Part shown: piece after piece, positions 5,781 to 25,742 of the stretch
Layout of the letters: each line of letters opens with the position of its first letter
Position numbering within the stretch: the stretch's first letter is position 1
Source of the DNA: Terriglobia bacterium
GTDB taxonomy: Bacteria; Acidobacteriota; Terriglobia; Terriglobales; Acidobacteriaceae
Reading direction: 5' to 3'
Assembly (NCBI GenBank): GCA_963734455.1
Contig: CAVTHC010000004.1
Span: 1,852 to 65,851, forward strand
DNA length: 64,000 bases
The notes under the pieces: model-generated
Told to the model about the DNA's origin: nothing
Databases searched by the model: none
What the model saw: the letters and a program-made list of their open reading frames with translations, nothing else
Program-made: the position numbers and the translations under genes

Positions 5781-5786
5781 ATATGG

Positions 5787-6449: not shown

Positions 6450-6480
6450 TCTGCAAGTGAGAAGTTAAAGGCTCCCGACC

Positions 6481-9351: not shown

Positions 9352-9951
9352 CTTGATCACGAAAGCGTAGCCGATATGCATACCTTGGCAATCGTCGCCA
9401 AACATTACAGTGGCGGGTCGCACAAGTGGCGGTAAACCGTTAGGGATCAGTACCACGACCCAGCCGAGCCGGGAAGGAGTTCCGCCCTGGGTCGCGTCGG
9501 TCGCATCGGGATCAGTGGCTCGACACTGTGTTCCTGCTGATGCACTGGCTCTTCCGTGGGTTCTGCTGTGGGTTCTGCTGTTCCAGTTCCACTCTAGGTA
9601 CTGGCGCACGGTTTGGTTTACCTGCGCCTCGTCCCGAGCAGGTGGGCCGTCATGGACAAGAGCGTCAAACTCGGTCGGAAAGCCGACTAGTAGAAAATGT
9701 CCAAGCTGTGATTCTCCTGTGAAATCAACGCGTCTGGCAATGCCCTCACAACTCTTATTCTGATTTCAGAACAAGCCAACTTTTCTAGATTTTTCCACAG
9801 CCTCTTCGATTAGATTGCTGCTTCTCTTTTTGCAACTTTGGTCTCTCGTGCGCGAGGAACAGCCCAGGCTCTACCCCGTGACGCTCGTAGAAGAACAGCA
9901 ATCCGTTTTGAACAGAGCCGGAAACATGCGCCAATAGCGTCAGGAGCGACA

Positions 9952-12900
9952 ATGAAAACCTCCGCTAGAATTTTCTTCCTCTTGCTAATCGTGTCATTCG
10001 TCACCAATGTTGCCCGCGCGGACTGCCCCCAGGGAGGGAATGCAACGTGCATAACGTCGTTCACGATTTCGCCGGCTGCAATTCCGGGCGACAACACGAC
10101 CACAGCTCTCGGCCAAGCCACGGCTCATATTGCTACCGGATACAATAGTTGGGAATTGGAGATAAGGCAATCGGGTAGTCTCGGCTGGGTTTGCCATCCG
10201 CCCGCAGTGCATCTTAGTCCGAACAGCGGCGGCGTGGGCTTTGCCGGGGGTTGTGCCGTCACAGGCGCGAGCGTGTCTTTTGAAATGTTTGGGCTGAACG
10301 GGGATTCGTCCCCCGTGCAGGTCGCCATAACAGGCGCAGCCGCTTACAACAACGATCCTGGAATAGACACGTCACTGACCCTGAACCCGAGACCCCCAGC
10401 TCTACCTCCCGACCAGGACCCTGACGGCCCGTGCCCCACATGCGGATATGGCGGCGCTCCTATTAACTTCGGTAATGGCGACACCTGGATCAGTCAACAG
10501 GACTACTCGATTCCGGGTCTTGGTGGCGGCCTGGTTCTCGGTCGGACCTGGAACAGCCTCTGGTCGTTAAGCCAGCCGCCCGAGGAATCCGGCATCTTTG
10601 GCGACAGTTGGCGCAGCAATTTTGAGGAACGCATACAGGTTTTGACGGGAGGAGTGGCCAAATATTGGAAGGGTAACGGAAGCAAGATTTTCTACGCATA
10701 CGACAGCGGCTCCGGCGGGTATGTCAGGACCGCACCAGCCGACGACCGTACAACACTGGATTACGACTCTATCACCATGCTCTGGACCGCTACGCAAAAG
10801 GACGGAGTCAGAAGAATCTTTAACAATGCGGGCTATCTAACCTCAATTGTGGACCGCAACGGCAACACCACCACCATCGTTGTGGACGCGGCGAACCAGA
10901 ACCGTATTTCCAGCGTCACCGATGCCGCTGGCCGTACCTTGACCTTCAATTATGCCAATGCCAATCCGCATCTTTGCACCAGCGTCTCGGATTCCGTTGG
11001 CACCGTCGCAACCTACAATTACGACTCCTCGGGCCGGTTGACCCAGGTCGTCTATCCCGACGGTTCGCAGTTCAATTTCAGCTATGACACGGGCAACCTG
11101 ATTCTGAGCGTGACCGATTCGCTGGGCCAGACCCTGGAAACGCACACTTACGACTCCCAGAATCGAGGGCTGAGTTCAGCGCAGGCCAGCGGAGTCAATC
11201 AGGTTTCACTCTATTATTCAAGTTCGACGGGCTCACCGGTGGTCATATACAACTCCCTAGGCCAAGCGTCCTGGGCCTACTTTTCTACGGTCGCACAGCG
11301 TCGATACCTGACTCAACCTCCCACGAATGTCGGTTGCGCCACTTGTGGATATGTACCGGGTTCTAGCTTCCTTCTCTCCGCTTCTGGCGACACGACGGCG
11401 TTCACTGATGGCAACAGCAACACCACCTACTACACGTATGACAGCCAGGGCAACGTCACCAGCAAGTCACTTCCTGACGCTTACCAGACGGGTGGCTACG
11501 ATATTTGGCAGTACACCTACAATGCTTTTAGCGAAGTTCTTTCGGTCACCGATCCGCTGAACCAGACCACCACCAATTCCTATGACAGCAACGGAAATCT
11601 GCTTTCCACTACTACGCCATCCCCCGATGGTTCAACCGCTGGCAGCGTCACGAGCTTCACCTACGACAGCCACGGCCAGCTCACGCGGATTACTGATCCG
11701 TTGTCAAACCAGACCAACATCGCCTACTACTCGACCGGTTTAATCCACACCATTACGGACACTCAGTCAGACGTGACCACCTATGCTTATGACGCTCGCG
11801 GCAACCGCACCAGCGTAACCGATGCCGCCAGTAATCAGACCCAGTTCCAGTACGACTCCATGAACCGGCTGACGAAGATCACCTACCCGGACAGCAGCAC
11901 GGTGCAGTTCGCCTATGACAACCGGGGGCGTCGCACGTCGGTCACCGACCAGAACAGCAAGGTCACGCAGTACGCCTACGACGACGCCAACCGCCTGACC
12001 TCGGTCACTGACGCGGCCAGCCATCAGACGCAGTACACGTATGACACGGAAAACAACCTGACCGACATCTACGATGCCGCCAGCAACCACACCCATTTCG
12101 ACTACATCATTGGCCGCCAACTGCAAAAAATCACGTTCCCCTCGGGTTTGTACGAGCAGTATTCTTTGGATAACGCCGACAACCTGGTCTACAAGTGGGA
12201 CCGAAAGAACCAGCAGCTCGCTTTGTCTCGCGATGCCCAGAACCGGGTCATTCGCCGCATCGATTCCGGCAACACGGTCTACTACACCTATGACGCCGCT
12301 GGCCGCATGACTCAGGCGCAGGATAACACCGGCACCTACGGTTTCACCTACGACAACATGGGCCGGTTGACCGAGACCACCACGAACTATACATTCCTGA
12401 CCGCGCGCGGATTCAACGTCCAATACGCCTACGATGCTGCGTCAAACCGGGTGACCTTGACCGATCCCGAGAGCGGCACCACGCACTACACCTATGACAC
12501 GCTTAACCGGCTGACGGGTCTAAACGACTTCCAGTCGCACAATTTCACATTCGGCTACGACGCCCTCAGCCGCCGTTCCCAGCTCACCCGGCCCAACGGC
12601 ATCAACACCAATTATTCCTACGACAACGTTTCTCACCTGCTTTCGGTGCTGCATCAACTCGGCAGCACCACAGTGGACGGGGCCAGCTATGTCTACGATT
12701 CAGCGGGCAACCGCACGGCCAAGACCGACCAGGCCAGTAGTGTTACGTCGAATTACGGCTACGACGCGATTTATCAGCTGACGGGGGTGTCCCAAGGGTC
12801 TACGTCTACGGAGAGCTACACCTACGACACGGTGGGTAATAGGCTGTCGTCTTTAGGCGTGTCACCGTACAGCTACAACTCGTCGAACGAGCTGACCTCG

Positions 12901-13911
12901 ACTCCGAGTACGACCTACACCTACGACAATAACGGGAGCACAGTGACGAAGGTCGACTCCACCGGCACGACCACATACACATGGGACTACGTGAACCAGT
13001 TGAGCAGTGTCGCGCTGCCGGGCTCGGGCGGGACGGTTAGCTTCAAGTACGACCCCTTCGGGCGGCGGATTTACAAATCTTCATCAAGCAGCACTTCGGT
13101 GTTCGCCTACGACGGCGATGACCTCATCGAAGAGACAAATTCAGCCGGAGCGGTCGTTGCTCGTTATTCTCTGACGGGAAATATCGATGAGCCTCTGGCG
13201 ATGCTGCGGAGCGGCGGGACAAGCTACTATGAGCAGGATGATCTTGGCTCTGTCACTTCACTCACCAATGGTAGCGGGTCACTAGGGCAAACATACACAT
13301 TCGATTCATTCGGAAACCAAACTGCGTCCGCTGGTTCTCTTACAAATCCAATCCGCTTCGCGGGCCGCGAGTTCGATGCTGAATCGAGCCTCTATTATAT
13401 GCGCGCCAGGTATTTCGATCCCGTCGCCGGGAGGTTCATCAGCGAAGACCCGAACGGTAACGGGACTCTGTACGATGATATGAATCTCTACGTCTACACC
13501 GAAAACAATCCCACTAATTGGACTGATCCTTTGGGGTTGTACACCTTGAAAAAGGGCGGAAAACATCCGCCTCTTCCGCCTTCTCCAGTAATCGATGCCC
13601 TTCTCAAGTGCATCGAAGCCAAGACGGGGCTTCAGCTTACGGTGACGTCAACGTCCGAGGATATTCCGCAGCATGCGCCTGGAACTCCACACAGAAGGGG
13701 CGTCGCTGTTGACCTTAAATACGATTCGGGAAATGCCGACAAAATCCTGTGTGCGGCTTCGGGTTGTGGCGCTGGCTTTGGGCTGGACGAGGGAAAGCAT
13801 CCGTCGGCACAGTCCACGGGCAATCACATTCATCTTCAAATCCCGCCCGGCAAGAATGGCGGGCGCGGCGACCTTCCGAAGAAACCGTGCAGTGATAGCG
13901 GGTGCAAATGA
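9952..13911 (+). CDS. RHS/YD-repeat polymorphic toxin with Sec-type signal peptide and LAS/M15-like metallopeptidase C-terminal domain
   Basis: ATG at 9952 preceded by AGGAG. Signal MKTSARIFFLLLIVSFVTNVARA. Dozens of YD repeats (xYxYDxxGNR/L). Core-end motif NPTNWTDPLGL. The 123-aa tip (13540-13908) carries PHRRGVAVD (HxxGxAxD) and HIH (HxH). Confidence 0.9.
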   Translation: MKTSARIFFLLLIVSFVTNVARADCPQGGNATCITSFTISPAAIPGDNTTTALGQATAHIATGYNSWELEIRQSGSLGWVCHPPAVHLSPNSGGVGFAGGCAVTGASVSFEMFGLNGDSSPVQVAITGAAAYNNDPGIDTSLTLNPRPPALPPDQDPDGPCPTCGYGGAPINFGNGDTWISQQDYSIPGLGGGLVLGRTWNSLWSLSQPPEESGIFGDSWRSNFEERIQVLTGGVAKYWKGNGSKIFYAYDSGSGGYVRTAPADDRTTLDYDSITMLWTATQKDGVRRIFNNAGYLTSIVDRNGNTTTIVVDAANQNRISSVTDAAGRTLTFNYANANPHLCTSVSDSVGTVATYNYDSSGRLTQVVYPDGSQFNFSYDTGNLILSVTDSLGQTLETHTYDSQNRGLSSAQASGVNQVSLYYSSSTGSPVVIYNSLGQASWAYFSTVAQRRYLTQPPTNVGCATCGYVPGSSFLLSASGDTTAFTDGNSNTTYYTYDSQGNVTSKSLPDAYQTGGYDIWQYTYNAFSEVLSVTDPLNQTTTNSYDSNGNLLSTTTPSPDGSTAGSVTSFTYDSHGQLTRITDPLSNQTNIAYYSTGLIHTITDTQSDVTTYAYDARGNRTSVTDAASNQTQFQYDSMNRLTKITYPDSSTVQFAYDNRGRRTSVTDQNSKVTQYAYDDANRLTSVTDAASHQTQYTYDTENNLTDIYDAASNHTHFDYIIGRQLQKITFPSGLYEQYSLDNADNLVYKWDRKNQQLALSRDAQNRVIRRIDSGNTVYYTYDAAGRMTQAQDNTGTYGFTYDNMGRLTETTTNYTFLTARGFNVQYAYDAASNRVTLTDPESGTTHYTYDTLNRLTGLNDFQSHNFTFGYDALSRRSQLTRPNGINTNYSYDNVSHLLSVLHQLGSTTVDGASYVYDSAGNRTAKTDQASSVTSNYGYDAIYQLTGVSQGSTSTESYTYDTVGNRLSSLGVSPYSYNSSNELTSTPSTTYTYDNNGSTVTKVDSTGTTTYTWDYVNQLSSVALPGSGGTVSFKYDPFGRRIYKSSSSSTSVFAYDGDDLIEETNSAGAVVARYSLTGNIDEPLAMLRSGGTSYYEQDDLGSVTSLTNGSGSLGQTYTFDSFGNQTASAGSLTNPIRFAGREFDAESSLYYMRARYFDPVAGRFISEDPNGNGTLYDDMNLYVYTENNPTNWTDPLGLYTLKKGGKHPPLPPSPVIDALLKCIEAKTGLQLTVTSTSEDIPQHAPGTPHRRGVAVDLKYDSGNADKILCAASGCGAGFGLDEGKHPSAQSTGNHIHLQIPPGKNGGRGDLPKKPCSDSGCK
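11891..13061 (+). repeat. 1171-bp direct repeat, copy 1 (inside the full-length rhs)
   Basis: Sense and antisense ORF translations are identical to those of 14689-15859. Boundaries were determined by reading both copies. Confidence 0.9.
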
Positions 13912-14531
13912 TCGCATTCGGGCAAATTCGCATCTATGCGTCGCGGATCGCTTTATCGTTGATGTTCTTGCTTACGGCGACTCCGACCTTCGCCCAGCAG
14001 GGATCATCTCCGCCAGCGCCTGCTAAACCCAGTGAAGAGTCTGCGCTCTGCAAGCGGGGATCTCTACCTCCGGACGTAGAGAGTCGCCTCAAAACAGAGT
14101 TCGGCTCTTGGAAGATTCAGGAACCCGCAGACCTCAGCCCGCATGCCCACGAAAGATGGGAATCTGAGAAGCCACGGGCGTGCCCGGGTATCGCTGTGGG
14201 GCAATTCGAGATCGCCAAGATGCTCTCCTATGCTGTTCTACTGGTCCCCCAAAGTCACACAGTCGCAGGCTACAAATTCCTCGTCTTCAGTCCTAAAGCC
14301 GGGCAGCCGTCCTACGAGATGAGGGTTGCTGATTCGGGTGATAGTGGAGCCGCTAACTTTTTCATCCACACGACACCGATCAGCAAGTTCTTCGATGAGC
14401 CATCCAGGAAGAAATTTCAAGCCCACACCGTGGACGGCATCTTACTCGTAGACTCAGCCGAAAATGAATATGGGGTAGAGGTGTACTTTTGGTCCAGCGG
14501 CCACTATCGGCACGAGCCGATAGACTACTAG
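13908..14531 (+). CDS. candidate cognate immunity protein, secreted/periplasmic
   Basis: ATG overlaps the rhs stop (ATGA at 13908-13911). Signal peptide SLMFLLTATPTFAQQ. I recognise no family. The position immediately 3' of the toxin tip is the classic immunity position. Confidence 0.6.
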   Translation: MIAFGQIRIYASRIALSLMFLLTATPTFAQQGSSPPAPAKPSEESALCKRGSLPPDVESRLKTEFGSWKIQEPADLSPHAHERWESEKPRACPGIAVGQFEIAKMLSYAVLLVPQSHTVAGYKFLVFSPKAGQPSYEMRVADSGDSGAANFFIHTTPISKFFDEPSRKKFQAHTVDGILLVDSAENEYGVEVYFWSSGHYRHEPIDY

Positions 14532-14688
14532 CTTGGCCTGACTCCCCCCTTTAGCTGTCTCTGAGGTCCTGCCAGGGCAGGGTTAACGTGCAGCGCCGGG
14601 GAGCGCCGGTGCCCAGGCCCCCAAGTGATCGGACCGCCGCTAATCTATGCCCAGCTACTTGCGGTTGCGAATCGCGATGACGAGGGCA

Positions 14689-15859
14689 ACAGCAGCACGG
14701 TGCAGTTCGCCTATGACAACCGGGGGCGTCGCACGTCGGTCACCGACCAGAACAGCAAGGTCACGCAGTACGCCTACGACGACGCCAACCGCCTGACCTC
14801 GGTCACTGACGCGGCCAGCCATCAGACGCAGTACACGTATGACACGGAAAACAACCTGACCGACATCTACGATGCCGCCAGCAACCACACCCATTTCGAC
14901 TACATCATTGGCCGCCAACTGCAAAAAATCACGTTCCCCTCGGGTTTGTACGAGCAGTATTCTTTGGATAACGCCGACAACCTGGTCTACAAGTGGGACC
15001 GAAAGAACCAGCAGCTCGCTTTGTCTCGCGATGCCCAGAACCGGGTCATTCGCCGCATCGATTCCGGCAACACGGTCTACTACACCTATGACGCCGCTGG
15101 CCGCATGACTCAGGCGCAGGATAACACCGGCACCTACGGTTTCACCTACGACAACATGGGCCGGTTGACCGAGACCACCACGAACTATACATTCCTGACC
15201 GCGCGCGGATTCAACGTCCAATACGCCTACGATGCTGCGTCAAACCGGGTGACCTTGACCGATCCCGAGAGCGGCACCACGCACTACACCTATGACACGC
15301 TTAACCGGCTGACGGGTCTAAACGACTTCCAGTCGCACAATTTCACATTCGGCTACGACGCCCTCAGCCGCCGTTCCCAGCTCACCCGGCCCAACGGCAT
15401 CAACACCAATTATTCCTACGACAACGTTTCTCACCTGCTTTCGGTGCTGCATCAACTCGGCAGCACCACAGTGGACGGGGCCAGCTATGTCTACGATTCA
15501 GCGGGCAACCGCACGGCCAAGACCGACCAGGCCAGTAGTGTTACGTCGAATTACGGCTACGACGCGATTTATCAGCTGACGGGGGTGTCCCAAGGGTCTA
15601 CGTCTACGGAGAGCTACACCTACGACACGGTGGGTAATAGGCTGTCGTCTTTAGGCGTGTCACCGTACAGCTACAACTCGTCGAACGAGCTGACCTCGAC
15701 TCCGAGTACGACCTACACCTACGACAATAACGGGAGCACAGTGACGAAGGTCGACTCCACCGGCACGACCACATACACATGGGACTACGTGAACCAGTTG
15801 AGCAGTGTCGCGCTGCCGGGCTCGGGCGGGACGGTTAGCTTCAAGTACGACCCCTTCGG
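14689..15859 (+). repeat. 1171-bp direct repeat, copy 2 (5' part of the orphan rhs cassette)
   Basis: Offset of 2798 nt from copy 1. Homology starts at ACAGCAGCACGG and ends at CCCCTTCGG. Confidence 0.9.
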
Positions 15860-16685
15860 CAGGAGGATTCAGAAGAGTGGGCCGAGCGGGACCGTGAACT
15901 ACCTCTATGATGGCCCCAACCCTCTGGAAGAGGTCGATCAGAACGGAAATGTTCTGGCCAGGTACACGCAAAGTGGTCTGATTGACGAGCCGCTGTCCGA
16001 ACTCCGTGCGAGCACGACCAGCTATTACGAGCAAGACGGAATCGATGCGGTTACTTCATTGAGCAATTCAGCGGGGGCACTGGCCAACACGTACAGCTAC
16101 GATTGTTTCGGCAAGCTGACCGCCTCCACCGGAACGATAACCAATCCATTCCAATACACCAGTCGGGAGTTCGATCTCGAAACCGGATTGTTGAACTACA
16201 GGGCGCGCTATTACGACCCGACCATCGGCAGGTTCGTCAGTGAAGACCCGATCGGATTCCATGCCGGAGTGAATTTCTACGACTACGTGCTGAACAGGCC
16301 TACTGTGTTTCTCGATCCAACTGGACTCGCGGGAGGACCCTATGGCACGTACGAGAAGACACGGTCATGGGGCAGCAAAATCAAATGCGCCATATACCTG
16401 GTCTACTGCACAAGAAACCTGCAGCAGACGCGTGACAGCCTTGACAACATGACCGACCAAGCAGTGACGAATACATCCGACGCGACGAGCAACCAGGGAA
16501 GCTACAGCAACCAAAGGCTGCAATGCGGCCTCTCACAAGATCCTAACTGTCAAAAGGCGCTGGAAAACTGCGTGAAGCTTGGGCTTACGAATCCTTTTCC
16601 TCCTCCGTCTTGGATGAAAGACTTGATCAATTATTTTTCGCAACCCAGTTCAACGCAACCGACTCCCCCGCCAACTCAACCGTGA
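14689..16685 (+). CDS. orphan (displaced) RHS C-terminal cassette lacking the N-terminal two thirds and signal peptide; alternative toxin tip
   Basis: RHS homology begins abruptly at 14689 with no RBS or signal sequence. It has its own divergent core end (...FLDPTGL) and a 118-aa Cys-rich tip (16329-16682) unrelated to the first tip. Confidence 0.8.
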
Positions 16686-16696
16686 GAGGAGGTCTT

Positions 16697-17200
16697 ATGC
16701 GCACTCTCTTGGCTATTGTTCTCGGCGTGGCTTTGAGCCTGATTCTACTGCTGGGTGAAAGCTTCTTCGTCATGAACTTCACGAAGGGCGGACAGGTGAC
16801 GCGGGATGCACTTTTCATCAAGAACGCGACGGACGCCGCACTCGCCCAGAAGTATGGTGGCGATCCGTTCGAACTGATACGGTCCACGCAACGGACCCAG
16901 AAATTCGTGCTGGAACCGATGATGGCCATCGCTGTCGGTCTTCTCGTGGGCTTCGTGGACAGGACTCGACCAAAGTTCTCAGCAGGCGTCGCTCTCATCC
17001 CGTGGATCATCGTCAACCTTGCCGGGTTGCACTGGCGGCAAGCCTGCGAGGCGTGTCTCGGAGGTGATCTGGCGCTTAACGCTGCTTACCCCGGAATCGG
17101 GATACTAGCAGCGCACTATTGCGGAAAGCTGGTGCATCGCCGGGGTGGAACTGCTCTGGTACAGCGGTCCGTAAAGCCCGAAGGTGTTAGACCAAGATGA
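16697..17200 (+). CDS. candidate immunity protein for the orphan tip; about 4-TM membrane protein
   Basis: ATG at 16697 preceded by GAGGAGG directly after the rhs stop. Hydrophobic segments LLAIVLGVALSLILLLG, MMAIAVGLLVGFV, VALIPWIIVNLAGL, YPGIGILAAHY. Confidence 0.55.
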   Translation: MRTLLAIVLGVALSLILLLGESFFVMNFTKGGQVTRDALFIKNATDAALAQKYGGDPFELIRSTQRTQKFVLEPMMAIAVGLLVGFVDRTRPKFSAGVALIPWIIVNLAGLHWRQACEACLGGDLALNAAYPGIGILAAHYCGKLVHRRGGTALVQRSVKPEGVRPR

Positions 17201-17771
17201 CTATGCAGGTGATGCCGCGATGAGGGGTAATTGGGATTGGGAGATCATCCCCGAAGGCACCGTCGAATGGATCGGTTTCTCTATTGCGCTGTTGGTTGTT
17301 CTGGTAGCCGCCTGGTGGATATCCCGATGAACTGATCCTTTTTAGCCCCTCGATCCGCTGCCCGCGGTCCGGTGCTGTGGGGTTCTGCCCGCAGGAAGTG
17401 AGCGGCTGGTAAAGTCAAAGCCCGGCCATTGCTGCGCATGGGGTTTACCAAGAGAAGTTTCTGGAGCTTCTTCCGGGTCATGGGCCGCAGCGAAGCCAGG
17501 TACCCGGCAAGCTCGTAGGGGTGAAACCTCCCACACGGCGGCCTGAAATCCTGGCAGCTCGGCGGCAAACTCGGGATGCTGCTCGGCGACCTCAGCGAAG
17601 GTCAGCAGCTTCTCTCTCACCAGATAGTCCAGGGCATTCTTCAGGCCGAAGCGCCGCCGGATGGTGCGGGTGGCTTGGCACTGCTTTCTCCAAATCTTGT
17701 GGCCGTGCATGAGGGAAACTATAGCGCCGTCGTGCGTCGTTCGCCAAGCTGGGCCAACAACAACTCGGAGC

Positions 17772-17870
17772 AAGACACCATCCCTTGCGCCTGCGGCGCA
17801 ATGAAAAGCGCACTGCCGGAAAGCACCCGGCGTCCGGTGAGCATCCGGGCTTTGTCCGGTGTCTGTCCGG
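17772..17870 (-). promoter_or_regulatory. degenerate second copy of the oriT-like module (minus orientation)
   Basis: The reverse complement contains a 34-mer with 30/34 identity to 6360-6393 (17829-17862). TCCGG motifs are phased at 11 bp (17833/17844/17855/17866). It has the hairpin TTGCGCC-TGC-GGCGCAA (17785-17801) and the identical 13-mer GGGATGGTGTCTT (reverse complement of 17772-17784). Confidence 0.5.
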
Positions 17871-17989
17871 CGTGGCGCCCGATCTCAGTTCGAGGGTTTG
17901 AGCGGCTCCCCGATTCCTGACACACACTGAGGGTTAGTTTCCGGAAATCTCCAGTTTTGTTTGTGACAGAAAATGGGAGCGGTTCAGCC

Positions 17990-18319
17990 CAGCTCATGCG
18001 TCATGTAATGCTGAGTCAGTTCCGCAAACGTCACGCGGCCCCGGAATTCTGATTTGTTGATTTGAGTTTGCAGATGTTACCTTTCTACTTCGGCCGACGC
18101 GGCAGACTCGGTAGGGAAATCGCTCACAAGGGCAACTACCACCTTGTGCTCGACTCGCCGTGAGTCTAGAGGCCGGGTTACGAAATAGCGCAACACCCAG
18201 GTTTGTCCATTCTTGCGGGATTCCACCCGCAACCTTCCACGTTGAAACCGCGCCATCTTAAATCGTCTCCTGTCTTGGCGCGGGAGACTGCCGTGACTGC
18301 GCGCGGACGGCATCCGCAA
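17990..18319 (-). pseudogene. remnant of a second tyrosine integrase (N-terminal part only, in-frame stop)
   Basis: MARFQRGRLRVESRKNGQTWVLRYF...DFPTESAASAEVER-stop-HLQTQINKSEFRGRVTFAELTQHYMTHELG parallels the N-terminus of the intact integrase (…VWNYLFCENG…DFPTKTAAWQAAE…). A TAA interrupts the frame at 18077-18079, and integrase-like sequence ends at about 17990. Confidence 0.65.
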
Positions 18320-18450
18320 CCTCTGAAAGGCGAAACCGCCACCCGCCCCTTACCTTGCCCCAGGGGATAAGCAGGAATCACGCCTTGGCGTGCCAATTCC
18401 AGCACGCGGCTCGTGACGGCAATGATCTGGTTCCACAAGTCCAGCGCCTA
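18320..18450 (-). pseudogene. remnant of an excisionase-like HTH gene (frameshifted)
   Basis: ...RVLELARQGVIPAYPLGQGKG in one frame continues as GGWRFRLSEVADAV in another. The same LxxARQGxxxAY...WRF signature occurs in the 3612-3983 product. Confidence 0.4.
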
Positions 18451-18523
18451 TTCGCTTGGGCAGGTGGGAAAGTACCCGATGAACGCAGAGAACGTCCTCA
18501 GGCGATTCGCGCAAAATCATCGG

Positions 18524-18901
18524 TCAAGGGCAGGTGAGTTGTGCTGTACCTTTAATGGTTGATCCTTGTTGCCCGTCCAAGGGCTGGACCGTCACGCTTC
18601 CCGTAATCGTCGCTGTGCCCACCGCCGAGGCGACACATTGCGCCAAACCGCTGTTGTCGATTGTCGCAATCGTCACATCAGAAACTGCCCAGGCGGCTGT
18701 CATAGGAGTCTCAGTGAGCGGTGGCTTGTTGAAGTTCCCAGTAGCCGTAAATTGTACCTGACCGCTTGTTGTGCTTTGCGCATCGGCCATAGCAGGACTC
18801 ACGGTGATCGACTGCAACTGACGCGGGGTGCTGCCGCCACACGCTAAAGTTACCGAGGTCAAGTAGAGAGCCACCACAAACAGAAGGCCGGACCTAGTCA
18901 T
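18524..18901 (-). CDS. small lipoprotein with bacterial Ig-like (Big_2-type) domain
   Basis: Signal plus lipobox-like LTSVTLAC. The body (ITVSP...VQFTATG...WAVSD..IATIDNSGL...GTATITG) matches the Big_2 pattern. Confidence 0.7.
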   Translation of the reverse strand: MTRSGLLFVVALYLTSVTLACGGSTPRQLQSITVSPAMADAQSTTSGQVQFTATGNFNKPPLTETPMTAAWAVSDVTIATIDNSGLAQCVASAVGTATITGSVTVQPLDGQQGSTIKGTAQLTCP

Positions 18902-18916
18902 AAAGCAAAATCTCCT

Positions 18917-20488
18917 TTAGGGTGTCAACTTGAACGAAGTCAGTAGACTATGCCACCCAGTGTTACTCGTCGTCGGATAGTATTCGTTCGTGTACACGAA
19001 CGTAAGGTCATCGACAGGATCGATAGACATGCTGGTATAGTCTCCCCACCGCGAAAATCCAGTTTGAGCACCAGTGCCTGGGTGAACGTTGGTCTCTGCC
19101 CTCATTGTACCAAGAGCATCGCCGGGAGCGCGGCCAGTAATACGGATTCCGGGAAATATGCTGCCGCTGGAGACGCTGTAGCCCAATGCAATCTTTCCGT
19201 TCTTATCCATTCCGATGCTGCCCATCCACCGCCAATTCAAATCCGGCGAGAAGGTGCCTTGCTGGTACAGGGTTTGCGTACCACCAGGGTTGCGAATCTC
19301 GTACCATCGAACGCCTGCCACCCCCCCTGGTGGCGCTGCGACGGTCTGGCAGACCACCCAAGCCTCGTGGTCGCCAAAGTTGCGGTAAGCTAGTCGGTGC
19401 ATTAAACGACCACCCAATGTATCAAGTGTTTGACTAGTTCCTTCTTGCGGAACACAAGTGCCACACGGTGGATTGTATGTAATGGTCAATGGGTTCCCGG
19501 CAGTAAGCGTCGAGTTGGCGGGATTCGCAAAATCCACGTGAAACTTCTGGATATTGATAAAGGGCCCACCGTGGAGGGTGGAGCGTATATCCATAAAGAA
19601 ATTAGCGCGGCCTGACGGTGGCAGAGTCGATCCGTCAAGATCTGAAGGTAGATAACTAAAATCTGGAGCTACATTTTGCTGGAAACAGATTTGGGCCGCT
19701 GAACTGCCAACAAGCATCGCACTGCGGTTGTAAGCACATACCCACGCTCCGACGAACGTGGTTCCGTTTTGGTACATATTGTAAGAGGCATAATAACCGT
19801 CCGGCCAGACACCAAATTTCGGATAGTCAGGCAAGTTATTAAACGAAAAAGCATATCGGTTATAGGAGCCGGTAGCATCCGAAGTAGTGGAAACTGCCAT
19901 GCAGATCGTCCCCGAGGCGAATGAATTGCTGGATGCGATTAGACCGACAAACCAGCGGCCAGCCTGCTTGTCGTATAGGACGACGGGATCAGAAAAGCTG
20001 GGTCCTAATTGGCATACTCCTCCGAATGGAGGGTTGGCGGCCCAGATACTGCTGAGCTGGTTCGGACCAAGTAGCGATGTACCCGCCTTGTTAAATACCT
20101 GATACGAGACATTAACGGTTTCAACGATCTGCGTTGCGCCTACTGACGCGTTTGGATCAGGCGGTATGAATCCAGTAGCCGAAATGCCGTCAAAACTAAA
20201 GAGTCCGCTCGTGCCCACGAGTGGACTACCTATTGCAGATGTCTGCACCTGAGGCTGCGGCCCAACATTCACGACTGGAAAAGTCGGCCCGGGTCTCAAC
20301 GGTATAACCTGCAATCCAACAGACGGTGGGGCAATCTGAGGTGCGTCTCTCAGGGGAATGGAGGTATCGTGGTAGTCCTGATAGACCACGTCCGGTTGCA
20401 CGTCCTGCGCAATTGTCGGTTCTACCCAAAGGAAAGATAGAGCAACTCCCAGGAGAAGTAAGCTAGAAGGTCCTCGCAGGTCTTTCAT
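18917..20488 (-). CDS. secreted hypothetical protein (523 aa)
   Basis: Signal peptide LLLLGVALSFLWVEPTIAQ. Long uninterrupted ORF in comparatively AT-rich DNA. I can name no catalytic motif with confidence. Confidence 0.7.
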   Translation of the reverse strand: MKDLRGPSSLLLLGVALSFLWVEPTIAQDVQPDVVYQDYHDTSIPLRDAPQIAPPSVGLQVIPLRPGPTFPVVNVGPQPQVQTSAIGSPLVGTSGLFSFDGISATGFIPPDPNASVGATQIVETVNVSYQVFNKAGTSLLGPNQLSSIWAANPPFGGVCQLGPSFSDPVVLYDKQAGRWFVGLIASSNSFASGTICMAVSTTSDATGSYNRYAFSFNNLPDYPKFGVWPDGYYASYNMYQNGTTFVGAWVCAYNRSAMLVGSSAAQICFQQNVAPDFSYLPSDLDGSTLPPSGRANFFMDIRSTLHGGPFINIQKFHVDFANPANSTLTAGNPLTITYNPPCGTCVPQEGTSQTLDTLGGRLMHRLAYRNFGDHEAWVVCQTVAAPPGGVAGVRWYEIRNPGGTQTLYQQGTFSPDLNWRWMGSIGMDKNGKIALGYSVSSGSIFPGIRITGRAPGDALGTMRAETNVHPGTGAQTGFSRWGDYTSMSIDPVDDLTFVYTNEYYPTTSNTGWHSLLTSFKLTP

Positions 20489-20874
20489 CAGATTGTTCCT
20501 TTCTGGGTAGGTCCGTAGGATCGTCGATCATTCAATTGAGCAACGAAGACACCAGATATTGTGCGACAATAAGACTATCCAGGCCAACAAAGATTTTGAC
20601 GGTCGCTTTCCCGACGCTGATGGTCGGCCACTCAGAATGCGGTGGCGCATCTATTGCTTGTTCTCTTGCAGCTTACCTTGGCCATGAACGCCCTGCACAA
20701 TCCCTAAAGCGTTTTGTTCCGAATTCCGACCACCCAACCGTAAGCTGTTGAAGAAGCGTCGTGTCATTCGCAGGTGTTCTGTGCGGACGCTCGCATACTT
20801 ACCGGATTTCCGGGAAAAGGCAGCAATTTGGACAGCCCTAGCGGTCTGGTTCGGCGCTGCCTCAGGTATCCTGA

Positions 20875-21155
20875 GTGCTCCGCAGAATCTTGGCCGAGTG
20901 GCAACCTGCACCCGCTGCAAGGGCCCTGGCTGCGAAGCGCACGCAGCGCGTTGATACGCGGCCCGTCCTTGACGCCGCTCGGGCACGGAATGGGGCAGGC
21001 GTGTTCCGACGATCCCGATTCGGACTCCTGGGACGGACAGAACGTTTTCGATGTATTCACTAAGGCCCAGGGTACTGCGCTCGATTTTCACCTTCGCGTG
21101 CGCGGCCTACAATCTGGTGCGCATGAAAAATCTGGCGACAATTCCAGCGATATAA
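20875..21155 (+). pseudogene. C-terminal remnant of a DDE transposase (IS4/IS5-like), frame-disrupted
   Basis: Frame ending at TAA 21153-21155 reads RPRVLRSIFTFACAAYNLVRMKNLATIPAI, a typical IS4/IS5-type C-terminal AYNL-x-R tail. Upstream pieces (…RFGLLGRTERF…) lie in another frame. No intact ORF. Confidence 0.45.
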
Positions 21156-21810
21156 GTCGGGGCCGAAGTGTGTTTCGCGGAGCATCGAGTTCTAAAGGGA
21201 CAGTCGGCAAGCTGCGACTGTTTTGGTGATTGAACTGGCCCTATCTCAGCCCATGGTTCCAGCCCAGGATTACTGCGCCTCGCACGTATTTGCAGGTACT
21301 TGGCAGTCTCCCGCAAACCTGTAAGTAGTTGTGGGTTGTGGTTGAACTAGGTCTGAAAAGGCTGGCGTCCGCGGTTCAACTCCGTCCTGGCGGTTTCACT
21401 TTGATGAGCGGAAGAGCGGGCGGTTAAGAGCAAACCCGAAAAGAGGCGTGGGATTCGAAGAGGCGCAGGAAGTTTTTTCGTACCCATACTACCTTGACAG
21501 CGCGCGGATTGTCTCGAACAGTACCGGGCGATCGGCTGGGTTTAGGAGCAGTTGTACACCGTCATTTTTGAAGTGCTAGTGGACGAAGAAGGAGAGTACT
21601 ACCACCTCGTCACTCTCTGGAAGGCCACCAAGTAGGAGCAGCAACTCTATGGAGAACACTCGTAAACGCCGGAAACCAGTGTCGGCAGAGGCCATTGCCT
21701 CGGTGAACACCCAAAAGCGGCCATACAAGATCACCTGAAAAGCGGCCATACTTTCAGAAGAAACGTCCAGGACATTGACAGCAGCGGGAGGGTAAGTAGC
21801 CTCTCGCAAC

Positions 21811-23544
21811 ATGGCGAATGTCTTGAAGGACGAAAAGAAGCAGCAAATCATAGGCTTGGGACGACTGGGATGGTCTCTGCGAAAGATCCAAGAGGCCACG
21901 CGAGTACGTCGAGAGACCATCAGTGCCTATCTGAGAGGCGCAGGTGTGGAAATATGGCCACCGGGAAGATGGAGGCGCGAAAGTAAGGCAAAAGCGGCCA
22001 TAGAGGTGATCACCGGCTCGGATGCAGCAAAACCGGCCATTCCGGGGTCTGCCGGTCCCCTCAACTTCAACCCCAACCCCAGCCCCAGTCCCAACTCCAA
22101 CCCCAGCCCCAACTCCAACCCCGAAAACCTTTCTACGAAGGGAATAGCAACAGCAACTTCAAAACCGGCCATAGCGGTGATCACCGACTTTGGCGTGGGG
22201 TTGAGCGGCAAGGAGCCAGAAAACTCGAAAGGCGTGGGCTCGGCAAGCAGCTGTGAACCCTACCGGGAAATCATCGAGCTGGGTCTGAGTCGAGATCGCA
22301 ATGCCATGGCCATCTGGCAGGATCTGGTCTCCGACCACGGATTCCAGGGTGGCTATCAAAGCGTTCGGCGCTTCGCTTACAAGTTGCGCGGCGCCCAGGT
22401 ACCACAAGCGCGGGCGGTGATCCTCACCGCTCCGGGAGAAGAGGGTCAAGTCGATTACGGCAGCGGGCCGATGGTGCGCGAGCCGCAAAGCAGCAAGTAC
22501 CGACGCACCCGTTTGTTCGTGCTTACGCTGGGTTATAGCCGCAAGGCAGTACGGCTGCTGGTGTTCCGATCCAGTACTCGCATCTGGGCCGAGCTCCATG
22601 AGAAGGCCTTTCGTCGATTAGGCGGAGCTCCGCGCATTTTGGTGCTGGATAATTTGCGCGAAGGTGTGCTGCTTCCCGACGTCTACGACGCCACGCTCAA
22701 TCCTCTCTATCGCGACGTGCTCGCCCATTACGGTGCGGTCGCCCTACCCTGCCGGATCCTGGATCCAGATCGAAAAGGCAAGGTGGAGTCAGCCGTGGGC
22801 CACGCCAAAAAAACTCCTCTGAAAGGACAACGCTTCGAGAGTCTGGAACAGGCGCAAGCCTATCTGGATCGCTGGGAAGCGAACTGGGCGGATACCCGCA
22901 TCCACGGCACCACCAAACGGCAAGTGGCGACCATGTTCGCAGAGGAAAAACCAACCCTGCTCCCGCTGCCGGTGGAACCGTTCCGCTATTACCAGTACGG
23001 CGAACGGGTGGTGCATCTGGATGGCTGTGTCGAAGTCGAAGCCGCCTATTACGGTCTACCGCCAGGCTGGATCGGACGTGGGGTGAAAGTCCAATGGGAT
23101 GAACTTTGCGTTCGTATCCTCGATCCCAAAACTGGATTACTCCTGCGAGAACATGTACGTCAGAAACGGGGCTGGTACCGCATTCAGCCCGAGGACCACC
23201 CCCAGCGAACTCCTTTCCGTGTGGTGCAGTTGCTCGGCCGCGCCGGCCGAGTGGGCACCCATGTCGGTACCCTGTGCAACCTTATCTATAGCCAGCAAGG
23301 CGAAGTGGGCGTGCGGCGCATCCTGGGCGTTCTCTCTCTCGCCAAAAAATATGGCACCGCGGCCGTCGATGAAGCTTGCGCGGCAGCCCTCGAGATGGGC
23401 GTGCACGAATATCGTTTCGTGCGTCGCTACCTCGAGCGTTGTCCACAAGCCCCCTTGAGTTTGCGCCAGGTCGATCCCTTGATCCGTGAACTGGTGCACT
23501 ACCGTGATCTGATCCATACCAAAACCAAGGAGCAAAGTGAATGA
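21811..23544 (+). CDS. istA: IS21-family transposase IstA
   Basis: 577-aa ORF. N-terminal HTH (GWSLRKIQEATRVRRETISAYLR) and integrase-core/DDE region (…GEEGQVDYG…LVLDNLREGV…). Overlaps istB by 4 nt. Confidence 0.9.
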   Translation: MANVLKDEKKQQIIGLGRLGWSLRKIQEATRVRRETISAYLRGAGVEIWPPGRWRRESKAKAAIEVITGSDAAKPAIPGSAGPLNFNPNPSPSPNSNPSPNSNPENLSTKGIATATSKPAIAVITDFGVGLSGKEPENSKGVGSASSCEPYREIIELGLSRDRNAMAIWQDLVSDHGFQGGYQSVRRFAYKLRGAQVPQARAVILTAPGEEGQVDYGSGPMVREPQSSKYRRTRLFVLTLGYSRKAVRLLVFRSSTRIWAELHEKAFRRLGGAPRILVLDNLREGVLLPDVYDATLNPLYRDVLAHYGAVALPCRILDPDRKGKVESAVGHAKKTPLKGQRFESLEQAQAYLDRWEANWADTRIHGTTKRQVATMFAEEKPTLLPLPVEPFRYYQYGERVVHLDGCVEVEAAYYGLPPGWIGRGVKVQWDELCVRILDPKTGLLLREHVRQKRGWYRIQPEDHPQRTPFRVVQLLGRAGRVGTHVGTLCNLIYSQQGEVGVRRILGVLSLAKKYGTAAVDEACAAALEMGVHEYRFVRRYLERCPQAPLSLRQVDPLIRELVHYRDLIHTKTKEQSE

Positions 23545-24284
23545 ATCTCATCGAGTTGAATCGTGCTTTACGACAACTGCGGCTGGGTGGAATCGCGACT
23601 GTGCTCGAGATGCGTCTGCACCAGGCTCAGGTCGAATCCATGGCACCCATCGACCTGATCTCCTGCCTGGTCGCGGACGAACTCACCCGTCGTGGCGACC
23701 GTTTGCTGGAACGTCGGCGAAAGCAAGCTCAGTTTCGCGATCCGCAAAAAACCCTCGAGAACTTCGACTTCACCTTCAATCCCAAGATGAATCGCAGTTT
23801 GGTTTTCGATCTGGCGACCGCTGCCTTCATCGCCCGCCACGAAGACTCACTTTTGGTCGGCCCACCCGGCAGCGGCAAAAGCCATCTGGCACAAGCCATC
23901 GGGCTGGCCGCCATCCAACAAGTCTATCGTGTGCTCTACCGCGAGACCCATACCTTGCTCGACGAACTCGCCGAAGCCTCGATCGACGGTACGCGCAAAC
24001 AGCACATCGAGTCTCTGGTCACTGTACCCTTGCTGATCATCGATGACTTGGGCATGCGGAAGTTATCCCTCACCGCCGCCGAGGAACTCCTGGAGATCAT
24101 CATGCGACGCTATGAGCGAGCTAGCACAATGATTACTTCGAACCGACCCGTCGATGACTGGGGGAAACTGCTGGGCGACAGCGCAGCGGTTACCGCCATG
24201 CTCGATCGCCTGCTGCATCATGGGCACGTTCTGAAATGCGGTCCACGCAGTTGGCGCACAAAAACAGGCTTGCCACCACAGTAG
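23541..24284 (+). CDS. istB: IS21-family helper ATPase IstB
   Basis: 247-aa ORF with Walker A GPPGSGKSHL and Walker B LLIIDDLG. Typical IstB length and position. Confidence 0.9.
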   Translation: MNLIELNRALRQLRLGGIATVLEMRLHQAQVESMAPIDLISCLVADELTRRGDRLLERRRKQAQFRDPQKTLENFDFTFNPKMNRSLVFDLATAAFIARHEDSLLVGPPGSGKSHLAQAIGLAAIQQVYRVLYRETHTLLDELAEASIDGTRKQHIESLVTVPLLIIDDLGMRKLSLTAAEELLEIIMRRYERASTMITSNRPVDDWGKLLGDSAAVTAMLDRLLHHGHVLKCGPRSWRTKTGLPPQ

Positions 24285-24351
24285 GTGGCAGGATAGAACA
24301 AACTTAGTCTTGGACTCTTCGAAAGTATGGCCGGTTTTGAACTGATCATGT

Positions 24352-25216
24352 ATGGCCGCTTTTCAGGCGATCACTGAGGCCATTGCACGCCTTGCGGACG
24401 AAGAGAGGGATGCGTCACGGTTCTTCACTAATACCGGGCGCATGATAGGTCCGATACAGCGGGTGAATGTTGACCTGGCGTCGGGCATGCTGGAAGAGCT
24501 GGCCAGGGCTGCCACCAAACGCGTGTATCTCTGGTGCTTTGTCGTCGTTCTTACCTCTGGCATCGCATTGCGTGTTGAAGCTGCACTCTACGCACGCCGA
24601 ATTGTCTCTGTCGTGAGGATGCTCTCCACCTTACGAATTGGGGAAACCTCTAAGGCCGAAACATTGTCGCGAATGCCAAGTCTGCGGCCACGGGACCTTA
24701 CGGCGCACCTCGCTGCGATGCGGACGAGTGTTTCTCCGCTGGAGTGGAAAATGGCGTGCCAGGCCGTCTGTTGTGGAGAACCGGTAACGATCTTCTTTCG
24801 CATGTCTTGCGTGGGTGGGTTTTCGTGCCGAGAGTCTCGGCATCTACGTCAACTTCACATCAGGAAAAGTCTCGTATTTTAGCTACCACCTGATGGTATC
24901 GGCACCAGGCGTGCCGCCACCACTTCCCCCTCCACCACCGGATGGGAAACTCGGGCTCGTGGTGATTGGGCTGAGTTCTCAGAGGGTGATCAATGTCAGA
25001 GACCAGAGCTCGACAGTCAAGGTGCATCCGCCGTACTATATTCCCTCCTCCCAGGCCGTGTCGTCACAGAGCATCGGAATTGGCTTGACTCCCAATGCTC
25101 CCGAAGAAATCGTGCAGAGTGCCTTCGACTTGCGGCTTAACTGCATCTGGAGTTTCGCAGGGTGCCGGCGCTGGAGCGAGCTTCTGCCATCCATTGAACC
25201 GTTGACGCGGAAGTGA
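24352..25216 (+). pseudogene. hypothetical gene interrupted by the IS21 element and carrying a further frame break near 24815
   Basis: ORFs 24352-24882 and 24815-25216 overlap in different frames. The N-terminal codons appear to lie left of the IS (ATG at 21649). No family recognised. Confidence 0.35.
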
Positions 25217-25415
25217 TTGGCGAAGTCCCCATTACGCTCACAATCCCATCGGGGCACTAAGCAGGCGGCGCTGCCTCGGGCGTACGCTTACGTCGGTAGT
25301 GCAGTTTTAGTCTCGGAATTCTGCAATCAGTTTGCAATCACTTAACGTGGACTACCGGGTACTCCCATGTCCTTAAAGCGCCGTCCGTGCTCTGTAAGTC
25401 CTTCCATTGACGTTT

Positions 25416-25742
25416 TCAGGTGGATTCGAGTCCTACCTGAGGAGCCATTTCTCTCCCGATTTTCCAGCCGCTTACGTTGAATCCCACGCCGGTGGCCCAC
25501 GCAGGCCCGGTTCTGGCTTGCGTGGGTATGATTGGCGATGCCGGGCATTTCTTCAGAGCGATACTTTGCGCGGAACTGCGGACCGTCCGCCCACCGGCCT
25601 GGTCTTTTGCTACCCATCGGCGGTCGCGATGCGGATTGGTTCGCGGCAGGCCGGTGCTAAGTTCACACTTCTCGCCCGGAGCGGCTCCACAAGTCGGACA
25701 GCGAACGGCGAGTACCTGCTTCGGGCTGAATACTTTGGCCAC
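25416..25742 (-). CDS. possible small zinc-ribbon protein (only the N-terminal ~45 aa look protein-like)
   Basis: N-terminus is MAKVFSPKQVLAVRCPTCGAAPGEKCELSTGLPRTNPHRDRR (CxxC...C...H). The remainder is low-complexity and the ORF ends inside the attR repeat. Confidence 0.3.
   Translation of the reverse strand: MAKVFSPKQVLAVRCPTCGAAPGEKCELSTGLPRTNPHRDRRWVAKDQAGGRTVRSSAQSIALKKCPASPIIPTQARTGPAWATGVGFNVSGWKIGREMAPQVGLEST
25425..25449 (+). repeat. attR core (25-bp direct repeat, copy 2)
   Basis: Exact copy of 2441-2465 (the tRNA-Asn 3' end) without the rest of the tRNA. Confidence 0.8.

Follow-up and report, generated by a model that had tools for sequence, protein, structure and literature searches.

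The 64-kb stretch of DNA analysed here, hereafter the window, is a portion of an Acidobacteriota chromosome carrying an inserted tRNA-Asn island of 23 kb, relatives of its proteins being found in metagenome-assembled genomes (MAGs) of Acidobacteriota (Terriglobia, Acidobacteriaceae, Bryobacterales). A preliminary description of this sequence had reported two modules resembling an origin of transfer (oriT): one, copy 1, beside the relaxase gene of the island, and a second one, copy 2, in inverted orientation farther downstream. The present analysis concerns copy 2, which, together with the remnants in its surroundings, comprises the following features:

17450–17771, minus strand: relic of ORFx, the first gene after the nick, with an ATG at 17710
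17772–17784, minus strand: nick core GGGATGGTGTCTT of copy 2
17783–17803, minus strand: type C hairpin of copy 2, with a 9-bp stem in the register of the family and a mismatch at pair 2
17829–17896, minus strand: repeat (iteron) array of copy 2, with an 11-nucleotide (nt) period
17987–18438, minus strand: int'/xis' remnant, consisting of the N-terminal part of an integrase plus an excisionase, adjoining the repeat side of copy 2
21353–21391, plus strand: 3' fragment of a tRNA-Phe gene, an attR-like remnant of a tRNA-Phe-type island

The existence of this second, inverted module is borne out by all of its parts. The 13-mer GGGATGGTGTCTT occurs in exact form at two sites only in the 64 kb, namely at 6437–6449 on the plus strand and at 17772–17784 on the minus strand. 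The 34-mer ACACCGGACAAAGCCCGGATGCTCACCGGACGCC, located on the minus strand at 17862–17829, matches 6360–6393 at 30 of 34 positions with the 11-bp phasing of CCGG that had been reported, and the 8 nt at 17870–17863, outside that 34-mer, constitute one further repeat. The spacers between the 34-mer and the 13-mer likewise measured, as previously stated, 43 nt in copy 1 (6394–6436) and 44 nt in copy 2 (17828–17785). Runs of at least three CCGGA motifs at an exact spacing of 11 nt were found window-wide only from 6330 (plus strand, four repeats) and from 17870 (minus strand, four exact repeats, starting at 17870, 17859, 17848, and 17837), with two degenerate repeats (TCGAA and TCGGG) continuing in phase farther upstream of copy 2. 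The hairpin of copy 2, TTGCGCC-GCA-GGCGCAA (17801–17785; perfect arms at 17801–17795 and 17791–17785, loop GCA), is wholly different from that of copy 1, and both of them fold as DNA, with −8.1 kcal/mol (z −3.0) in copy 1 and −8.2 kcal/mol (z −2.7) in copy 2. The pairwise alignment that had been proposed as a check, here a local alignment of 6320–6460 with the reverse complement of 17760–17900, reached a score of 33 (z = 17), against a mean of 8.8 (standard deviation 1.4, maximum 16) in 2000 dinucleotide shuffles, and no run of at least three CCGGA at the 11-nt spacing arose in 200 shuffles; by these two controls, we rejected a likeness of the two copies by chance.

By analogy to the TrwC of plasmid R388 (PMC4176350), the nick of copy 2 is predicted after GGTGTCT on the minus strand, between 17773 and 17772, so that the base of the stem would lie 10 nt 5' of it. 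An inverted repeat followed by a conserved single-stranded stretch, with the sequence constrained 5' of the predicted nick and free 3' of it, is the layout of MOBF nick regions, and copy 2 exhibits that layout. We also observed that several repeats in 6330–6393 and 17829–17870 read (AG)ACACCGGA; since ACACC is the reverse complement of the GGTGT in the nick core, the predicted single-strand folds pair a repeat with the core, which pairing was not seen in the other repeat classes.

A search pattern built on the stem of copy 2 retrieved at least 29 loci from Acidobacteriaceae-type MAGs, several of them per genome, and the stem TTGCGCC/GGCGCAA defines what we call the type C class of origins, most of the genomes in this comparison being incomplete MAGs. 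In full, that class has the stem (C)NTTGCGCC/GGCGCAA(GG) with a GNA loop, CCGGA at positions −65, −76, −87, and −98 from the nick, and the core GGGATGGTGTCT. Copy 2 fits that definition, with few differences from the consensus (a loop GCA vs. GAA, plus one base 5' of the stem), and on these sequence criteria we assign it to type C. The identity to the type C consensus was 87% from −120 to −90, 100% from −90 to −60, 93% from −60 to −30, and 93% from −30 to the nick, with lower values outside the module (43% past the nick, about 50% upstream of −150); copy 2 is no farther from that consensus than are the intact members. For this reason, the label of "degenerate copy" in the preliminary description had to be abandoned, and so had the notion of a duplicate of the island's own oriT, since copy 2 falls into a class found only in relaxase-less elements. 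In 23 distinct type C loci the mean pairwise identity was 0.92 for the repeats and 0.98 for the hairpin plus core, compared with 0.4–0.58 for the coding sequence of the flanking XRE gene, which pattern indicates that the type C module is under constraint.

For the genomic context we examined 31 distinct type C sites from Acidobacteriaceae genomes, among the matches listed. No trwC homologue was present within 4 kb of any of the 31, nor at any of the 9 sites whose flanks reached up to 10 kb, and a primase, XRE, or ribbon-helix-helix (RHH) gene was located near 26 of the 31. The canonical order begins with an RHS gene plus toxin/immunity cassettes, a NikA-like RHH gene (PF21983), about 200 nt of non-coding sequence, and the oriT on the opposite strand; past the oriT, it continues with the XRE gene, whose product is a regulator of the HTH_3 type, a DnaG-type primase of about 1050–1080 aa, and a tyrosine recombinase. 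In one locus (L114; the fetched loci bear numbers with the prefix L) Pfam recognised the RHS, the immunity cassettes, the primase, and the integrase. A further one (L211) is a contig of 7865 nt whose terminal overlap of 127 nt equals the assembler k-mer, from which we deduce a circular element of 7.74 kb; this element encodes an XRE protein, a primase of 1082 aa, a tyrosine recombinase, and a few unknown open reading frames (ORFs), has a C-like oriT, and carries no relaxase. With L114 and the circular L211, then, the type C family includes delimited elements that have a recombinase and an origin of their own but neither a relaxase nor mating-pore genes. The intact elements are small, integrative or replicative, and in the chromosomes of Acidobacteriaceae usually occupy the distal end of an RHS toxin/immunity array; at least four assemblies have more than one type C copy. 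The window conforms to that arrangement, with its RHS locus (9838–16685, plus strand) on the nick side of copy 2 (minus strand) and on the opposite strand, just as in L076, L079, L080, L083, L091, L092, L096, L105, and L114.

Two peculiarities of these elements were noticed in passing. Gene units of the type C kind (NikA-like RHH, XRE, primase) stand in tandem in L111 and L113, as well as in L080 and L097, some of the units having the oriT core, and are separated by C-terminal RHS fragments that start repeatedly near the residue corresponding to 1030 of the RHS protein of the window; RHS genes may be the insertion sites or recombination partners of type C elements, which may carry toxin-tip and immunity cassettes. 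In addition, the approximately 200 nt after the nick in type C loci (e.g., L105:10370–10560, minus strand) are 82–89% conserved and contain a long inverted repeat, GGGAGCCGAGTCAAGGG ... CCCTTGACACGGCTCCC, along with TTGAC motifs; that segment, not present in the window, might serve as a priming signal or single-strand promoter of the leading region.

The homologous unit around copy 2 turned out to be larger than the one previously described, spanning some 470 bp from about 17450 to about 17918. On the repeat side the homology ends at around 17918, where the stop codon of the XRE gene would fall. On the nick side, the sequence from 17771 down to about 17450 is approximately 97% identical in nucleotides to L072, in which an XRE gene and a type C oriT are followed by an ORFx of 97 aa inserted ahead of the canonical post-nick segment. 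In the window the ORFx has suffered a 2-nt deletion between 17527 and 17526 that causes a frameshift, and the homology to L072 is lost before the stop, at about 17450. The remaining flanks of the class (XRE and primase on the repeat side, the post-nick segment and the NikA-like RHH gene on the nick side) are missing at copy 2, no homologue of the RHH, XRE, or primase genes being present anywhere in the window; among the type C sites with full 4-kb flanks, it is the only one that lacks every partner gene. As had been stated before, no relaxase follows copy 2, in that no homologue lies within 4 kb of it; the sole relaxase is the trwC of the island, whose stop is 8.4 kb away, on the opposite strand. 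A type C element, then, once sat downstream of the RHS cargo of the tRNA-Asn TrwC island, which corroborates the earlier claim of a related element at this place; of that type C element the window retains about 470 bp, with neither recombinase nor ends: the whole oriT as far as the nick, and the first post-nick gene, frameshifted and truncated at its 3' end.

The int'/xis' remnant, for its part, had been correctly located beside copy 2, starting 70 nt beyond the end of the copy 2 homology, but it does not belong to the same element. That remnant, which came to light only through the sequences of relatives, by tblastn matches, is 72% identical in nucleotides to the second int/xis pair of L008, and its relatives integrate in tRNA-Phe. 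Correspondingly, the tRNA-Phe fragment at 21353–21391 is 95% identical to the 3' end of the tRNA-Phe beside int in L002, L006, L007, L008, L009, L041, and L049. The remnant and the fragment are together the relic of a tRNA-Phe-type sister island inside the tRNA-Asn island, so that int'/xis' derives from a third element and not from the one that brought copy 2. When the int, xis, orf283, parA, orf151, and trwC of the island were compared by tblastn with the window, no paralogue was found near copy 2. Copy 2 is accordingly the best-preserved part of a relic of about 470 bp that deletions have joined to the remnant of the third element. Two tRNA-Phe-type islands were also seen in tandem in L008.

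Taking these observations together, we consider it probable that copy 2 is the oriT of a relaxase-less type C element, now reduced to a fossil of some 470 bp, whose origin matches the resident relaxosome. That relaxosome is specified by the host island, whose features are as follows:

2389–2463: tRNA-Asn gene, the 3' end of which lies within attL
2441–25449: host island, integrated at tRNA-Asn and bounded by the tRNA gene and a direct repeat
2441–2465 and 25425–25449: attL and attR, an exact direct repeat of 25 bp
2509–9351: island backbone
9359–25424: island cargo
2509–3615, minus strand: integrase (int)
3612–3983, minus strand: HTH_17 excisionase (xis)
4141–4992, minus strand: orf283
4989–5780, minus strand: ParA-like ATPase (parA)
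5787–6242, minus strand: orf151, a small helix-turn-helix (HTH) protein, divergent from oriT copy 1
6330–6449, plus strand: oriT copy 1
6330–6393, plus strand: CCGGA repeats of copy 1
6420–6438, plus strand: hairpin CCTAACGC-GAA-GCGTTAGG of copy 1
6437–6449, plus strand: core of copy 1
6481–9351, plus strand: TrwC/MobF relaxase-helicase of 956 aa (trwC)
9838–16685, plus strand: RHS toxin locus (Pfam RHS_repeat), part of the cargo
9838–13911, plus strand: full-length RHS gene
13902–14531, plus strand: putative immunity gene
14625–16685, plus strand: orphan RHS fragment

Copy 1 is the island's own type A oriT, with a nick predicted between 6448 and 6449 and thus 32 nt 5' of the start of its cognate MOBF relaxase gene, and the same module stands upstream of trwC in all the close relatives. 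The TrwC protein matches the Pfam TrwC family at 2.5e-76 and contains an AAA_30 domain in addition. In the PDB, the relaxase domain is closest to the TraI of pCU1 (5.5e-41) and the TrwC of R388 (1.2e-40), the TraI of F also being at about 1e-40, and the catalytic motifs—Tyr13, Tyr23-Tyr24, and the three-histidine motif HHDTSRELDPQLHTH—are intact. The position directly upstream of a gene for such an enzyme argues, as the preliminary description had it, for 6330–6449 being a functional origin, which assignment copy 2 supports. The backbone and the chromosomal flank are 93.7% identical to those of a near relative (L001) up to a point 7 nt past the trwC stop, with divergence beyond, on account of which we take the sequence from about 9359 to 25424 to be cargo. 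As neither type IV secretion nor coupling-protein genes are present in the 64-kb window, we regard the island as mobilizable rather than conjugative. The nearest plasmid relatives of the TrwC are MobF proteins only 31–33% identical to it, and no plasmid in PLSDB carries the repeat-hairpin-core module. Of viral contigs (IMG/VR), four gave matches, all of them by chance, in unrelated AT-rich coding sequence lacking the hairpin and the repeats, and a phage or satellite origin of the module was accordingly rejected.

As to the rest of the cargo, a direct repeat of 1181 bp at 99.7% identity links the full-length RHS gene (11891–13071) with the orphan RHS fragment (14689–15869), which pattern is typical of toxin-tip displacement through recombination. 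An IS21-like insertion sequence occupies 21691–24386, encoding an rve/Mu-transposase-C protein (21811–23544) followed by an ORF of 247 aa (23541–24284) and bounded by imperfect terminal inverted repeats (about 84 nt, 80% identity). Two ORFs of 125 and 523 aa in the same direction (18524–20488) had neither a Pfam or NCBIfam match nor a homologue in any fetched locus; in those two libraries, moreover, no family was assigned to ORFx, orf283, ORF523, ORF125, or the cargo ORFs. The remainder of the window codes for chromosomal signalling proteins; among the sensor-kinase genes there, the stretches 50006–50128, 51569–51636, 52816–52963, and 55796–55839 are self-complementary or repeated, comprising palindromes of 68–150 nt at 72–82% identity along with a 44-nt repeat at 91–93%. 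In Rfam, nothing except the tRNA was matched.

The argument from selection on the hairpin-plus-nick architecture, which had been put forward from the two copies, holds at the level of the family. Among the fetched loci we counted at least 160 distinct sites. Pair counts, made on 123 distinct hairpin-plus-core sequences, were obtained with a script anchored at the base of the stem, as MAFFT lost the register of stems of 8 or 9 bp and loops of 3 or 4 nt. Of the 71 loci collected through their TrwC similarity, most contain the hairpin plus GGGATGGTGTCT. The close relatives (TrwC identity 83–95%) have the type A stem CCTAACGC, on the strand of trwC and about 40 nt ahead of the gene; in the Bryobacterales relatives (61–67%) the stem is of type B, CCTAAGCC, and lies on the strand opposite to trwC, about 500 nt past the gene. 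With a broader pattern scan, further type B origins came to light immediately ahead of trwC as well as elsewhere, the XRE-primase context included. The search for the hairpin plus core thus led, as anticipated, to MOBF relaxase genes for types A and B (the core and hairpin register lay beside TrwC at 21 of 25 type A sites and at 51 type B sites), but not for type C, in which no relaxase is encoded.

Throughout the three hairpin classes the 12-nt core is identical, and in all 123 distinct sequences the base of the stem stands at a fixed 10 nt 5' of the end of the invariant core. Pairs 4–7 of the stem are exchanged with compensation (AT in 99 and TA in 23 sequences; AT in 100 and GC in 21; GC in 84 and CG in 38; CG in 82 and GC in 39), almost no pairs being broken. 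A perfect stem of at least 7 bp is formed in 69–81% of the sequences, compared with 1.2% when the 5' arm is shuffled. The type C stem in the family register has 9 bp, CNTTGCGCC/GGCGCAAGG, with one mismatch at pair 2, and in one locus (L225) a perfect 9-bp version, CCTTGCGCC/GGCGCAAGG, occurs. Conservation in the family falls at +1, directly after GGTGTCT; the nick of R388, ...TGTCT/A (PMC4176350), is the basis for the predicted position. Because of the compensated pairs, the fixed spacing, and a conservation that ends after GGTGTCT, selection on the repeats-hairpin-core architecture is supported.

A relaxed search for the core (up to 2 mismatches) in those TrwC loci that have no exact core yielded nothing convincing. 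We observed, in addition, that a second TrwC family, 28–31% identical to the TrwC of the window, occurs in many Acidobacteriaceae genomes, with distant NikA-like RHH genes (35–54% identical) about 2.3 kb upstream of it in L126–L165; downstream of the NikA-like gene in these loci, the search for an origin encountered coding sequence only, with no hairpin or core. A further singular locus is L003:585–625, where the 8-mer GGTGTCTT is repeated five times in tandem at the predicted nick (GGGATGGTGTCTTGGTGTCTTGGTGTCTT...), an arrangement that may have arisen by slippage at the nick or by successive rounds of cleavage and religation.

The repeats upstream of the hairpin co-vary with the small HTH protein orf151. 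In types A and C they are CCGGA(C), at about −65, −76, −87, and −98 from the nick; in type B the hexamers are element-specific (CCGGAC, CCGAAC/TCGAAC, TTGAAC, CTGGAC/GGGAC, CCCAAC, CTTGAC). Over 51 distinct loci, which fall into at least six specificity classes, a change of the hexamer in the adjoining repeats is accompanied by a change in the recognition helix predicted for the orf151 homologue, ST(V/I/L)NDFV going with CCGGAC, STxH/YDFV with C/TCGAAC, and SNI(Y/H)(Y/H)F with TTGAAC. Although profile libraries return only weak HTH matches for orf151, its gene always adjoins the repeats, and the constant unit of the type A and B islands is an orf151 divergent from repeats, hairpin, and core, in both gene orders with respect to trwC. 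This protein is thus a candidate for the repeat-binding accessory factor of the relaxosome, and in the window CCGGAC is the class both of orf151 and of the two oriT copies. Copy 2 resembles the oriT of the island in the 12-nt core, in the repeat class and phase, and in the 30 of 34 positions already mentioned, the stem being what differs.

On these grounds, we propose that the repeats of an intact element would be bound by an orf151-like HTH protein with CCGGAC specificity, while a TrwC-type relaxase, provided in trans from an island such as that in the window, would recognise the base of the hairpin plus the single-stranded GGGATGGTGTCT and cut after TCT. The helper island, with no type IV secretion genes in the window, would in turn depend on a conjugative element. 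In other words, we infer that type C elements are mobilised in trans by the TrwC and orf151 of such islands; copy 2 itself may still be nickable. With respect to the resident orf151 and TrwC, the repeat class and the nick core of the relic match, but the upper stem does not, and this and other considerations weigh against our proposal. In R388 the proximal arm of the hairpin together with the single-stranded stretch is essential for TrwC (PMC4176350), and the type C proximal arm, GGCGCAAGG, shares with the type A arm, GCGTTAGG, only its last three bases, so that copy 2 may be beyond the reach of the resident TrwC, and the relaxase on which type C depends may be one outside our sample. In that sample no TrwC has a type C origin in cis, which suggests either that the upper stem is read with little stringency or that the relaxase in question escaped our sampling. 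A type A island, moreover, was found in only 3 of the 22 type C assemblies, among the matches listed and with most of the genomes being incomplete MAGs. The intactness of copy 2 may reflect youth alone, given that the relic beside it has kept about 97% identity to L072; and the XRE protein, the NikA-like protein, or the recombinase of type C could act at the site themselves.

Among the alternatives, the one implicit in the preliminary description—that copy 2 is a degenerate inverted duplicate of copy 1, generated by an internal duplication or left by a tandem copy of the island—is the least credible, and we give it hardly any weight. That reading would account for the common architecture, the identical 13-mer, the 30/34 repeat block, and the presence of remnants of another island next to copy 2; nevertheless, between −120 and the nick copy 2 agrees with the type C consensus at 87–100% and has the stem that defines type C, its nick-side flank recurs in L072, a type C locus, the int'/xis' remnant comes from a tRNA-Phe-type island with a type A backbone, and no paralogue of trwC, orf151, or parA lies near copy 2, so that the family comparison refutes it. 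A stronger contender, though in our estimation still unlikely, is that copy 2 serves as a working second oriT of the island, used by the resident orf151 and TrwC, so that the island, once excised, could begin transfer from either strand, or TrwC could recombine or invert the 11-kb segment lying between the two inverted origins. The module is indeed intact, with the repeat class and phase of copy 1 and the identical 12-nt core; related islands display the oriT-orf151 unit in both orientations relative to trwC; and the TrwC of R388 catalyses site-specific integration into a target copy (PMC3264647). Against that stand the differences in the upper stem and in a proximal arm that is essential for the TrwC of R388 (PMC4176350); the frameshift and truncation of the neighbouring gene, because of which we consider the element to be decaying; the lack of a second origin within 10 kb downstream of trwC in each of about 16 close relatives of the island; and the fact that an inverted isoform was not seen.

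Two further readings concern the function of the module as such, and we consider both improbable. The repeats and hairpin might constitute a replication origin, or a ParA partition site, bound by orf151 or used by the type C primase. Repeat arrays are typical of centromeres and replication origins; the 11-bp-phased repeats lie beside the parA operon promoter in the type A islands, and type C has a large primase and can be circular. In type B, however, the repeats stay with orf151 and the hairpin-core, apart from parA, and in type C they keep the same distance from the core in the absence of both parA and orf151, while the invariant core, the compensated hairpin at 10 nt, and the conservation ending after TCT conform to the MobF layout, directly 5' of trwC in type A. 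The remaining possibility, that type C elements process their own origin by means of the XerD-like tyrosine recombinase plus the NikA-like protein acting as an atypical relaxase, has its model in what has been proposed for the MpsA/MpsB of SGI1, MpsA resembling a tyrosine recombinase. A tyrosine recombinase is always present in type C elements, the NikA-like RHH is usually beside the origin, and SGI1 encodes MpsA and MpsB as mobilisation proteins of its own (PMC9299015). Yet TrwC genes 55–95% identical to that of the window stand beside origins with the very 12-nt core and hairpin register of type C, which would be hard to explain if one enzyme family did not read both; and the position of the recombinase, at the other extremity of the element, is that of an ordinary integrase.

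The base of the stem in R388 is 8 nt from the nick, unlike the 10 nt to the predicted nick found here, and the accessory factors of R388 are the RHH protein TrwA plus the integration host factor, in contrast to the HTH protein with 4–6 phased 11-bp repeats that is our candidate. Other differences from the MOBF plasmids are that the type A origin is on the coding strand just upstream of trwC, and that we are dealing with integrated islands without type IV secretion genes. What the present family has in common with R388 TrwC and the TraI of F and pCU1 is a homologous relaxase domain (E about 1e-40 to 1omh, 3l57, and 1p4d), a nick region formed by an inverted repeat and then a conserved single-stranded stretch ending in ...TGTCT, and a sequence constrained 5' but free 3' of the nick (for R388, PMC4176350).

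The type C elements recall, in turn, the relaxase-less integrative hitchers named "iOriTs" (bioRxiv 10.64898/2026.01.13.699239) and the mobilizable genomic islands with a helper-like oriT (PMC5397120), in being integrative, in having an origin that resembles that of relaxase-encoding elements without a relaxase or a mating-pore system, and in possessing a gene content otherwise unrelated to that of the putative helper. They depart from those hitchers in that the putative helper has no secretion or coupling genes in the window, which would make the dependency two levels deep; in sharing with that helper only the repeats and the 12-nt core, the stem being class-specific; in carrying a primase and a NikA-like protein and being tied to RHS toxin arrays; and in residing in Acidobacteriota, outside the species surveyed in bioRxiv 10.64898/2026.01.13.699239, the window moreover holding a fragment and no whole element. 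With SGI1 (PMC6414798, PMC9299015) they share an integrative and mobilizable nature, a small accessory and a tyrosine-recombinase-like protein, an origin of their own, and, presumably, the use of the mating apparatus of a helper; but the SGI1 origin is unrelated to that of the helper plasmid (PMC9299015), whereas the type C core is identical to that of the TrwC islands.

A last comparison bears on the ParA of the island. Phased repeats in the promoter region of the parA operon, as in the type A islands, bring to mind the iteron-type ParA centromeres or operators, which consist of short direct repeats one helical turn apart and a small DNA-binding protein beside parA. Unlike those, the repeats here travel with the hairpin-core and orf151 in type B and persist without parA in type C.

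As for what these findings mean, MobF origins and the sharing of origins by hitchers are already known; new are the family itself, the pairing of HTH protein and repeats, and the link to RHS arrays, and a literature search found no paper on transfer origins in Acidobacteria. For the window itself the outcome is modest, in that copy 2 is a fossil corroborating copy 1. Acidobacteriota are nonetheless a dominant soil phylum whose mobile elements are almost undescribed, and copy 2 opens up a large family, whose cultured carriers include Granulicella paludicola DSM 22464, Telmatobacter bradus DSM 23630, and Acidobacteriaceae dw_441. From the sequences of that family one can directly read off a nick site of the MobF type, a hairpin with compensated pairs, and a repeat and an HTH protein matched in specificity, the covariation of the orf151 helix and the hexamer offering a ready-made code of protein-DNA specificity. 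More broadly, and only tentatively, we envisage a three-tier conjugative dependency in Acidobacteriota, in which TrwC islands, equipped with a relaxase and an iteron-binding HTH protein but lacking secretion genes in the window, would help relaxase-less primase/recombinase elements that ferry RHS toxin-tip and immunity cassettes, the hitchers copying the repeats and the nick core of the helper while keeping a hairpin class of their own, and the window representing a hitcher's origin captured in the cargo of its own putative helper. In this family, the sharing of an origin by islands with a relaxase and RHS-linked elements without one can be put to a concrete test.

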